Positions 33,001 through 36,000 of a stretch of DNA of 47,284 bases are shown one piece after another; the first letter of the stretch is position 1; each line of letters begins with the position of its first letter. The position numbers are program-made. Source of the DNA: a virus (Duplodnaviria > Heunggongvirae > Uroviricota > Caudoviricetes); IMG/VR virus record IMGVR_UViG_2718218305_000010. The stretch is one strand, 5' to 3'.

Positions 33001-36000
33001 TCCACTACTTCTGTAAAACGGGCTGTGTGATTTGCTGGCGTTCCGTCAAAGTCAAATTCCCCCTGCATCCACACCACGGCAAGCAGCACATTTTTCGGGT
33101 TCTTTGCCAGCGCGGCTTTTGTACGACCGATGAGATCCTTATACAGCGGCCTGCCCACACCCCAGCGGGTAGAACTCTCTGAGGCACCGGTCACGTCACT
33201 GTATGTTCCATCTGCCCCGGTGGTGAAAGCTGAACCACCACGGCAGCACGGAACCAGAAGAATACCCGCATTCGCCGGTATAAACGGCAGCAGCTTTTTG
33301 GCAATATGCAGCCCCTGCCCCACGGTTCCGTACTGACCTTTCGACAGGTCAGCTTTCGGATGGTTAAGACGGCTCATGTCCTGTACATCATGCAGACAGT
33401 GGTCTGCCGGAATAATGTCGTTATATTTACAGGGAGCGCCATCCGGCGTCACTGTGCTGCGACGAGCCAGTTGCTTTATACGCGGGTCAGGACGGTCATA
33501 TGTCTGCGGCAGAGGAAGCCCCTCACCGTAAGCCATGCCGTTCGACTGCCCGGCCAGTGGAATAACGTAGTAATAATCTGGCTCCGTGGTGACCACTCCC
33601 GGATAGCCACCATCCCCCGTGCCGGGCACAACCACTGGCGTGGTCACATCCCCCTCCGCGGCAATCGCCTGCATCAGGGTATAAGGGGTTATGGCCACAG
33701 GACTACCAAACGGCTGCCAGCCCTCTTTCAGTTTGTGTGTCAGCTTTTCCGCAAGATCTGACGGCGACGCCGCCCTGACAACATCATAATGTTTAATCGA
33801 CATCGAATTTCTCCCGTGTACAGGAACAGAGTTAAAAAGCCGGAACCGGAATCAAATCACAGGATGACCATCTGCCAGTGGCTGGTCGTAAAAAAAAGGC
33901 CGCGCCATGCGCAGCCGGAAATAAAGGGATAACGATGATAGTTTGAGAAAAACAGAAATAACACTTTTGTGGCAAAGCATGGTGCCGGGTGCCTCCCGGT
34001 GAATTCAGTACCAGCACCTGAATCCGCGATTATCCCATATACCTGGTTGCTGATTGCCCCTCCGCACAGGGGGATTCACCATGCAGTAGTATTTTTAATA
34101 AACAGTAAACAAAAAAATCAAGCATTATGCAGGCTGTTTCTTTTTATCACCGGCCACAGCAATACCACAATGCCGCAGACCAGCCCCCCATCCGCCAGCA
34201 CCGACATGATTCTGCTGGTGAAATCCACCATCACCACCAGAAACAGCAGGAGTGCAGCCACAGCCAGACGCAGTTTTACCGTCACAGGTAATTCTCCAGA
34301 CGAAGACCCAGAACACCGGCAATCTCTTCCAGCACCTTGCGCTCTTCCGGCTCAATTTCGCCGTCTGCCTCCGCAATGGCCACCGCCACATCCAGCACAT
34401 CTTCCGCTTCACGCGTATCGTGTTTCACATCCTCGATCTCACGTAACGCCGCACGACGACCAGTTTTAAAGTTCGTATCCAGCTGACCGATAATGGTTGC
34501 GCTAATCGCATTAATTTCTGACGTAAACGCGGACAGCGCTGGCTGATTACGCAGTACCTGTTCGATCTTCGCTTTCTAGGAAGCCTCACATTCACCATCT
34601 GCACAGGCCACCAGGTATGCGGCGTTAATCACCGCCTGTGCCAGATCGCGTTTCTCAAACTTTCCTTTTTCCGGTTAACGTGACACACCAATAACTCTTG
34701 TCGAAAAAGCCAGCAAGCAGAAAGACCGGTATTCACAACCACCAGCGCGTTTACTGTACTGGCGTGATTTCAGTCATAAAAAAACCCGCCTGGCGACGGG
34801 TGTAAAAAATCTTCTAACGTCAGGCATAAAACGCCCATCGTTAGGGCAAATTTACCACAGATTCGGGAAAAATCAACAAAGCTATCTGGTCACCTTTTTC
34901 AGTTGTTGTTCTGCCCATGCTTCTTCAATATCAAACTGCACCACCAGCGTATCGTAAAAACGTTTAACTGTTTTTTTCCATGTATCAAGAGATATGGCAT
35001 CGGTTACATTACATATGGCATTAAATGCCTCCGTTGAAGGTAATCTTTCATAGCCACGACCACCACAACGCTGGCAGTCTCTGATAACAGGCATACCACG
35101 TTTTACCGACTCTTCACGATGAATGGCAACACCGCGCCCACGAAAATCTTTACAGGCGGTGGAAACCTCCCCCTTCCCTCCACACTCCGGACAGGCAACT
35201 TTTACCACCTCCCTGACTTTTTTCCATTCCTCCCAGTAAGACGGATACACGCCTTTTGTGCACTTTGCCCACACTGGCGGCTTACCATCCGGATACTGGA
35301 TCTTGTTTGTAAAAACCTCGCTTTCAATAAATTTTTTTCCGTGACAACAGGGGCACTGTTTTTTGCTCGCCGCGCTACGGGCATAATCTTCAAACGCATA
35401 CGAAGCCATAATACGCATCACTGCCGGTTTTATTTCTGCCGGGAGTTTTCTTAACGCCGCCACGCGATCACACCGACTGAGTGCATATTCTGTCAGCAAT
35501 TCTGTTGCCCGCTCTCTGTCATTCATACTAATGCCCATTTTCCCAAGGAACGCAGAAAACCCCATCTCAGCCCAATTCTGTGTCATGCCCTGCGCGGCCA
35601 TCACATCAGTGATACTCAGCGTATCTTTCGACGTTGAGGCCGATGCATCAGTCAGGCCGGGGGATTTTGGGGAGTAGTATTTCGGTAAATCTTCCAGTTT
35701 CATTTTTTGACCTGCCCTTCAAGCATTATGGGGTAAATCTTCACCCCCAGACGTCCACCAGATACTGGCTGAGCACGAACGATATTGATTTCATCAAACT
35801 GCTCATCGTCCATTAGCAACCCCGCATGCGTCAGCGCATCCAGCGGCGCTTTCAGAATATTGTCCAGGTCACGGCGGCGCTTATCCGGTGGCTCGGCAAT
35901 AATCTTTATCGCCAGCCTTCCGGACAGGCTTAATTTCAGCCGCTGCTGGCGAACAATAAGCGCCACAGCCCGGCGATAACGCTCACCGGCTTTTGATACA

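Follow-up and report, generated by a model that had tools for sequence, protein, structure and literature searches.

What kind of late-gene switch does the defective lambdoid prophage Sp6 carry, and does its antiterminator still work? The question is raised by the virus record IMGVR_UViG_2718218305_000010, a stretch of 47,284 nucleotides (nt) analysed as a whole (hereafter, the window), which is the reverse complement of prophage Sp6 of Escherichia coli O157:H7 Sakai. Positions 34778-35703 on its minus strand hold the open reading frame (ORF) of the Q antiterminator, whose product is identical to the Sakai protein ECs_1524, and 105 nt downstream of it. The locus is the late-gene switch of Sp6, made up of Q and a promoter-terminator unit (pR'-tR'). 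Taken together, the evidence makes it very probable that this switch is homologous to that of phage lambda, with a Q protein of a long-arm form, its own pR'-tR' and a substitution, Phe-187, that somewhat more likely than not weakens or abolishes Q function. Direct support comes from sequence homology, the predicted fold, motif conservation, the sequence features of promoter and terminator, and conservation across the family. The start site, pausing, Q loading and termination at Sp6 are proposed by analogy with lambda.

Q belongs to the lambda Q family

In a profile search, the Q protein matched the Pfam family Antiterm (PF03589) with 164.2 bits against a cut-off of 26.7 (E = 8e-49). It also matched PHROG 127 ('anti-termination protein Q-like') from end to end (profile positions 1-252 of 253, E = 6.8e-111). 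Lambda Q matched the same PHROG profile in two pieces only, indicating that the consensus of this phage family is the long form. In a phmmer search of the PDB, two parts of Q were aligned with lambda Q (7UBM_Q, E = 1e-39): residues 1-123 with its residues 1-124, and residues 183-273 with its residues 117-207. A BLASTP comparison with the translated Q gene of the lambda reference genome gave 32% identity and placed 68 gap columns in the centre of the protein. An earlier note on this DNA had described a lambda-type Q that aligns with lambda Q at both ends and carries an extra CxxC-rich segment. Both alignments agree with that description, and six cysteines (C117, C119, C120, C148, C171 and C174) are located in the unmatched middle segment.

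The predicted structure led to the same assignment. The AlphaFold2 (AF2) model was built from 109 sequences and had a mean predicted local distance difference test score (pLDDT) of 81. When it was compared with the PDB using Foldseek, the top eight matches were all Qlambda chains, and these were the only significant neighbours. The best match was 7UBN_Q (E = 3.7e-14; template modelling (TM) score 0.77, normalised to the target). Judged by sequence, the gene encodes a transcription antiterminator of the Qlambda family and represents a common branch of it with a long arm.

Like lambda Q (PDB 4MO1 and 7UBJ-7UBN), Sp6 Q has an N-terminal segment, a helix-turn-helix body, a zinc-ribbon arm and a C-terminal helix. 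Unlike lambda Q, it has an insertion of about 68 residues, and a Phe at the equivalent of lambda C121. The antiterminators Q21 and Q82 do the same job by the same logic, in which a DNA site and a sigma-dependent pause are followed by read-through, but they are non-homologous proteins with a different fold (PMC9388147) and showed no sequence match to Sp6 Q.

The insertion enlarges the zinc-ribbon arm

Four CxxCxGxG-type knuckles, C117/C120, C171/C174, C184/C187 and C210/C213 in family terms, were recognized, and each was kept in 107-108 of the 108 full-length homologues. The lambda zinc ribbon (CRDCHGTGRAV...CGRCKGVGYSRMP) corresponds to knuckles 3 and 4, as judged by the flanking sequence shared by the two proteins (CxDCxGxG+AV ... 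CxRCxGxGYxRxP) and by the exact spacing of 26 residues. Therefore, the insertion consists of knuckle 1, a long beta-hairpin and knuckle 2, and separates the helical body from the lambda-type ribbon. The 'arm' of lambda Q, at residues 114-152, is a zinc ribbon. It swings outward to reach positions 11-13 of the Q-binding site, and it makes a further contact with the zinc-binding domain in the beta' subunit of RNA polymerase (PMC9388147). The insertion thus enlarges the part of Q that reads DNA and docks onto polymerase. Knuckles 1 and 2 would form a second zinc site, and knuckles 3 and 4 the site equivalent to that of lambda.

The same CxxCxGxG motif, in four copies with two zinc centres, is found in the DnaJ zinc finger, and one source labels a Q homologue 'chaperone protein DnaJ'. 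However, the motifs in Q are spaced by 54, 13 and 26 residues, decorate an arm that binds DNA and RNA polymerase, and are not accompanied by a J domain or by the C-terminal domains of DnaJ. DnaJ_CXXCXGXG (PF00684) matched residues 171-218 below threshold (25.4 bits against a gathering score of 32.7, E = 1.7e-5), TIGR02349 reached 20.7 bits against a cut-off of 377, and the fold match to 7ZHS was weak (E = 0.6). The resemblance to DnaJ is one of motif only. An origin of the insertion by internal tandem duplication of the zinc ribbon was also considered but was not supported, as only a weak self-match was obtained (E = 0.007 in a tiny search space), with nothing beyond the CxxCxGxG motif.

The long form is the norm in Enterobacterales

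Of 5,426 complete E. coli genomes, 2,524 had a match to the 1,061-bp segment covering Q and pR', and in many O157:H7 strains the segment was 100% identical. It was also found in phages mEp460 and Evi and in a Shiga toxin (Stx) 2a phage, where the gene is annotated as quuQ. At the protein level, 742 relatives of Q were retrieved. Among the best 120 of these, 108 were full-length, all of 258-277 amino acids (aa) (most 260-277) and with four knuckles, from Escherichia, Salmonella, Klebsiella, Enterobacter, Citrobacter, Serratia, Pantoea and other genera. Clustering of the Q family at 50% identity gave 226 clusters in total, and the insertion was missing, as in lambda, in only 2 of the 32 full-length representatives that were aligned.

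The Q proteins of mEp460, Evi, Stx2_EH1910 ('quuQ'; DNA 99.7% identical to Sp6) and enterobacterial prophages share with Sp6 Q this length and the four-knuckle arm, together with matches to PHROG 127, PF03589 and PF00684, and their loci share the spacer block and the compact pR'-tR' described below. Unlike Sp6 Q, all of them have Cys at position 187. In addition, mEp460 and others carry tRNA genes after tR', where Sp6 has a TerB pseudogene. By sequence comparison, the long form is the norm across Enterobacterales and lambda is the outlier, both in the insertion and in the length of the leader; neither feature is a peculiarity of the Sp6 locus. The Q locus is already annotated and extremely common, and it is an ordinary variant of the lambda system except for the lost cysteine. 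Nothing on the long form (QuuQ/ydfT, DnaJ-like Q) was found in the literature searched.

A zinc-ligand cysteine is lost in the O157:H7 lineage

Position 187 was Cys in all 108 full-length homologues and Phe in Sp6 Q, so that the lambda-equivalent ribbon reads C184, F187, C210 and C213 in place of four cysteines. The representative of the 90% identity cluster (P0002) differed from Sp6 Q by S14P and F187C only, and six further abundant Q alleles all encoded Cys. When 41-nt queries centred on the variant base were used in megablast searches, the TTT allele was found in 238 genomes, essentially all of O157:H7, whereas the TGT allele in the same context was found in 388 genomes of O145, O111, O121, O103 and other serotypes. 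General decay of the gene was ruled out, because Sp6 Q departs from conserved positions at 12 sites, as do its close, intact relatives (12 each). The sequence data thus describe C187F as a single lineage-fixed substitution of a zinc ligand. The F187 copy is, by its sequence, a family member by descent whose activity is in doubt. If knuckles 3 and 4 form the lambda-equivalent site, F187 would be the counterpart of lambda C121 and would adjoin residues that contact polymerase. On these sequence grounds, we lean slightly towards the view that F187 weakens or abolishes Q function.

The strongest competing explanation, which we regard as a real but lesser possibility, is that F187 Q is fully functional and that Sp6 keeps an autonomous switch. 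The zinc site of knuckles 3 and 4 could be completed by another ligand (e.g., C119, D186, H195 or water), or it could be dispensable because knuckles 1 and 2 stabilise the arm. The ORF is intact, with the number of deviations given above, and the allele is stably kept in the 238 O157:H7 genomes, but fixation in one clonal lineage is uninformative about selection. Sp6 still excises spontaneously, replicates and is transferred at low frequency; against this, K-12 lysogens of Sp6 release no particles (PMC2669165). The published analysis of the Sp6 defect left Q out (PMC2669165). The invariance of Cys-187 also speaks against a functional F187 Q, as do the two knuckle 3 cysteines, which even distant 50%-identity representatives retain in the form of CxxC or CxC, and the lambda residues flanking the equivalent knuckle, which contact RNA polymerase and DNA (PMC9388147). 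Relatives that seemed to have three knuckles and to lack motif 3, which would make F187 harmless, proved on alignment to have CxC for CxxC, with both cysteines kept.

It is somewhat less probable, though conceivable, that Sp6 Q is inactive and that its pR'-tR' either makes a short RNA only or is served in trans by a near-identical Cys-187 Q of a sibling prophage, as a case of interplay between O157 prophages. Such a sibling (locus L088; 2,945,197-2,946,018 and downstream) was found in O157:H7 strain Z892. Its Q (WP_000762902.1) has C187 and R44 and shows eight residue differences from Sp6 Q. Its unit is identical to that of Sp6 from the stop codon through +44, and the terminator stem is altered but still pairs. 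Because promoter, spacer and pause element are the same, complementation in trans is conceivable. Moreover, the Cys allele had matches in several O157:H7 genomes, and interactions among defective prophages are documented in Sakai (PMC2669165). However, the sibling copy is known from Z892 rather than from Sakai, and of its eight differences five cluster at residues 200-209 of the arm, in the stretch that links knuckles 3 and 4, where they could alter DNA specificity. Prophage Sp10 was ruled out as a source of a long-arm Q acting in trans, as its antiterminator is an unrelated protein of 184 aa.

A second unusual residue was observed at codon 44 (35572-35574, minus strand), where Sp6 Q and P0002 have Trp and 102 of the 108 homologues have Arg. 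In lambda Q, the N-terminal segment around the equivalent of this residue refolds into part of the RNA-exit nozzle.

The late promoter retains the lambda -10 and pause element

The promoter pR' is located 5 bp downstream of the Q stop codon. Its -10 and pause elements (TAAATTTG-N4-AACGATGGG) match those of lambda pR': in a comparison with the reference genome NC_001416, GGTAAATTTG and AACGATGGG were identical to lambda and separated by the same 4 nt. The pattern TAAATTTGNNNNAACGATGGG occurred once in the 47-kb window, at 34854..34834 on the minus strand, and only 0.01 chance matches would be expected even with two mismatches allowed. The close resemblance of the -10 and initial transcribed region to lambda, as proposed in the earlier note, thus held against the real reference sequence.

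The transcription start is placed at 34842 by homology with lambda. Counted from there, AACGAT occupies +1 to +6 and starts 6 nt past TAAATT, exactly as in lambda, and it has the A at position 2 and T at position 6 of a -10-like hexamer. These two positions matter most to sigma in -10 recognition. Among 51 unique leaders of the family, A at +2 was invariant and T at +6 was nearly so (at least 90%), and the variable positions were +3 and +4.

The spacer between -35 and -10 contains a block, TTTTCCCGAAtCTGTG, that was conserved in loci whose Q is 50-100% identical to that of Sp6 and that differs from the lambda spacer. In lambda, the Q-binding element (QBE) lies in the spacer region of pR' (PMC9388147). 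The position and conservation of the block fit a clade-specific Q-binding element.

A compact predicted leader ends at tR'

A predicted intrinsic terminator is located between the promoter and the late genes, as in lambda, and is conserved across the family. Its stem spans +42 to +59 and its hairpin has a predicted free energy of -9.7 kcal/mol; the RNA is predicted to end at about +64 to +67 (about +66). The leader, folded as 68 nt (-21.3 kcal/mol, z = -3.0), forms a 5' stem-loop (+1 to +27), a 14-nt A/U-rich linker and the terminator (Table 1). The terminator hairpin is kept with changed bases in mEp460, in E. albertii and in the sibling O157 prophage.

For comparison, 79 loci with Q relatives were fetched, and 64 of them, including lambda, the window and mEp460, were anchored on the pause element. 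A first intrinsic terminator was found in 60 of the 64; the median position of its stem end was +58 (range +48 to +124), and 54 of the 60 stems ended by +71. In this comparison the Sp6 stem ended at +58, the family median. A locus with a 207-aa, lambda-like Q (L073) had a compact unit too. The lambda 6S RNA is 194 nt and StxS is 258 nt, the latter being processed to 74 nt; both are constitutive transcripts of Q-dependent late promoters that end at tR' during lysogeny (PMC7547250). The Sp6 unit, known here from its sequence, is proposed to yield a transcript of the same kind, but its leader is much shorter and the similarity is limited to the first ~9 nt. The earlier note's observation that the terminator follows after only about 60 nt, far sooner than in lambda, is therefore correct, and the compact leader is the norm of the family, with lambda and StxS as long exceptions.

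Table 1 Features of the Sp6 late-switch locus in the window
Feature	Position	Strand	Basis
Q antiterminator gene, 273 aa, ECs_1524, WP_000762929.1	34882..35703	minus	Pfam, PHROG, lambda Q alignment, Foldseek, identity to Sakai
Insertion relative to lambda Q, residues ~114-181 (~68 residues)	35161..35364	minus	Lambda gap in MAFFT and BLASTP alignments
Knuckle 1 C117-x-C119-C120-x-G; beta-hairpin strands 125-136 and 159-170; knuckle 2 C171-x-x-C174-x-G-x-G	Within insertion		AF2 secondary structure
Lambda-equivalent zinc ribbon ('arm'), residues 182-218	35050..35160	minus	Alignment to lambda C118/C121...C144/C147
Arm parts: knuckle 3 C184-x-x-F187-x-G-x-G; strand-helix-strand; knuckle 4 C210-x-x-C213-x-G-x-G			
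Codon 187, TTT (Phe); TGT/TGC (Cys) in the family	35143..35145	minus	Alignment; zinc-ligand loss
Putative -35, TTGATT	34871..34876	minus	Read from sequence; aligns at lambda TTGACT
16-nt spacer TTTCCCGAATCTGTGG, candidate QBE, extended -10 TG at 34857-34856	34855..34870	minus	Position and conservation
-10 hexamer TAAATT, identical to lambda pR'	34849..34854	minus	Lambda alignment
Putative sigma-dependent pause element AACGAT, +1..+6, identical to lambda	34837..34842	minus	Homology
Predicted 5'-terminal stem-loop of leader RNA (+1..+27), outer stem AACG/CGUU, inner stem GGGCGU/AUGCCU	34816..34842	minus	Minimum free energy structure
Predicted intrinsic terminator tR', stem ACCCGTC/GGCGGGT (34801..34784) then T7	34777..34801	minus	Terminator scan, fold

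The 5' end of the leader may form a covarying stem

At most loci, the first 4-5 nt of the transcript, that is, the pause element itself, are complementary to a segment at about +19 to +27; in Sp6 the partner is +24 to +27. The stem is AACGA/UCGUU in lambda and most loci and AACG/CGUU in the window. Other versions are GAUGA/UCAUC and AUAA/UUAU in Xenorhabdus, AACAA/UUGUU in Pectobacterium, and AACAG/CUGUU and AACA/UGUU in Pantoea and relatives. The pairing was evaluated on a sequence-only MAFFT alignment of 51 distinct leaders. The four outer pairs were formed in 93% of cells, compared with 88% after shuffling (0 of 500 shuffles reached the observed value) and at most 39% with a slid partner. 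Double-sided changes were observed in 12 cells against 3.4 expected (0 of 500 shuffles reached 12), and permutation between pause-element classes gave 224 of 20,000. These data suggest compensatory changes in the 5' stem across the family, among leader sequences that are related to each other. A stem at the very 5' terminus would presumably shield the RNA against decay that depends on the 5' end. No description of a 5' hairpin of the lambda late leader was found in the literature searched.

It is improbable, in our judgement, that what the unit mainly yields today is the terminated RNA of ~66 nt, working in the lysogen as a regulatory small RNA (sRNA) like StxS, with the stem, linker and terminator serving that role rather than late-gene control: the two-hairpin layout, the 14-nt A/U-rich linker and the U7 tail resemble Hfq-dependent sRNAs, the 5' stem covaries, and pR' transcripts of Stx phages are functional sRNAs (PMC7547250), but the stem is equally well explained as protection of a long late mRNA, linker and loop lack sequence conservation within the family, as expected for a simple leader, no matching Rfam family was found (noise matches only: mmgR, E = 0.19; anti-hemB, E = 0.65), and the published Sakai list of Hfq cross-links, a list of selected orphan peaks in which an absence is weak evidence, has no entry at Sakai ~1,554,209-1,554,275 and names only EcOnc33 and EcOnc54 in Sp6, neither at the pR' leader.

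Proposed mechanism of the Sp6 late switch

On the reading of the locus as a lambda-homologous switch, RNA polymerase would start at 34842 and pause after about 16-25 nt, when sigma-70 re-binds the -10-like AACGAT at +1 to +6. Q bound to the spacer DNA would then load onto the paused polymerase, and the modified polymerase would pass tR' and the terminators beyond it to reach the lysis and morphogenesis genes. If active Q were missing, transcription would end at tR', giving an RNA of about 66 nt with two hairpins and with the pause-element sequence in its 5'-terminal stem.

Several points weigh against parts of this reading. The pLDDT of the arm and insertion is moderate (~69-82), and the knuckles may instead pair in a DnaJ-like manner (1 with 4 and 2 with 3). 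The promoter was missed by a generic sigma-70 scan, as it scores 8 of 12 (TTGATT, 16-nt spacer, TAAATT) and 9 were required, and the Q-binding site was assigned by position and conservation. Aside from F187, the Q allele is no more divergent than those of intact relatives and is annotated as intact in RefSeq, so it may still work.

A more far-reaching version, which we offer as speculation with little chance of being right in full, would combine several of these elements. In it, the extra module of the long arm touches promoter DNA or RNA polymerase at an additional point, a contact absent from lambda Q, and Q therefore loads differently; C187F cripples Sp6 Q and leaves pR' as a producer of the ~66-nt RNA; and the covarying 5' stem, which sequesters the pause-element sequence, is selected family-wide for the stability of the late mRNA or as part of a small RNA.

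Other features of the Sp6 late region

Within the prophage, Q has the nin/rusA region on one side and the late promoter and lysis genes on the other. The DUF968 and RusA genes are located upstream, and the terminator and the nanS-p esterase, holin and lysozyme genes downstream, a neighbourhood that fits a late-operon switch. The late region (31866-34778) is laid out as in a Stx phage, with Q, pR'-tR', a moron site, a 645-aa nanS-p esterase and holin. Neither tRNA genes (ARAGORN) nor stx genes were found in the whole window.

Directly after tR' (34282-34644, minus strand) is a gene of the TerB family (TciA/TerB-like) with an in-frame TAG at ~34578-34576, and RefSeq lists this gene as a pseudogene interrupted by an internal stop. 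The version found at the equivalent position in Sp10, after two tRNA genes, is intact and encodes 143 aa. A second strong terminator-like hairpin, GGCTGCGC-ATG-GCGCGGCC followed by T8, was observed at 33898-33916 (minus strand), just upstream of the nanS-p start, and would be an additional terminator for Q-modified polymerase to read through.

Three sRNA-related features were also observed. A strong match to the sRNA family STnc100 (Rfam RF02076; E = 1e-22, with 101.6 bits where the gathering score is 47) lies at 33944-34110 on the minus strand, between the DUF3927 gene and the nanS-p esterase gene and co-oriented with the late operon. The published Hfq cross-link peak EcOnc33 of Sp6, about 71 nt on a Northern blot, maps to about 31915-31962 on the plus strand, where it runs antisense to the nanS-p esterase ORF (31866..33803, minus strand) at the 3' end of that ORF. 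Finally, a 126-bp stretch at 28130-28255 is 96% identical to the HnrS (EcOnc11) region of Sp10. The sRNA HnrS, 66 nt long, binds Hfq and represses hha, and three identical copies of it, in Sp9, Sp10 and Sp12, have been reported; a fourth copy, slightly diverged and not counted in the HnrS paper, seems to be present in Sp6. Although HnrS has the same length as the predicted leader RNA, it was ruled out as a pR' transcript, as HnrS (EcOnc10-12) is encoded on the opposite strand, with the Rz gene on one side and the terminase genes on the other.

Significance

The principle of Q antitermination is understood as before. The literature reached had nothing on what the extra zinc module does, on the O157-specific zinc-ligand loss or on the covarying 5' stem, and these are modest, testable leads rather than surprises. 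C187F is a natural mutant in a heavily studied pathogen, and it could help to explain why Sp6 is defective and how Q might be supplied in trans by sibling prophages. The covarying stem, if confirmed, adds an RNA element to a class of promoters studied for 40 years. To our knowledge, all structural and mechanistic work has been done on short-form Q. The main value of the comparison is corrective: the textbook lambda Q, with its 207 aa and 194-nt 6S leader, is atypical in its own family, most members of which combine a double zinc-knuckle arm with a leader of about 50-70 nt.

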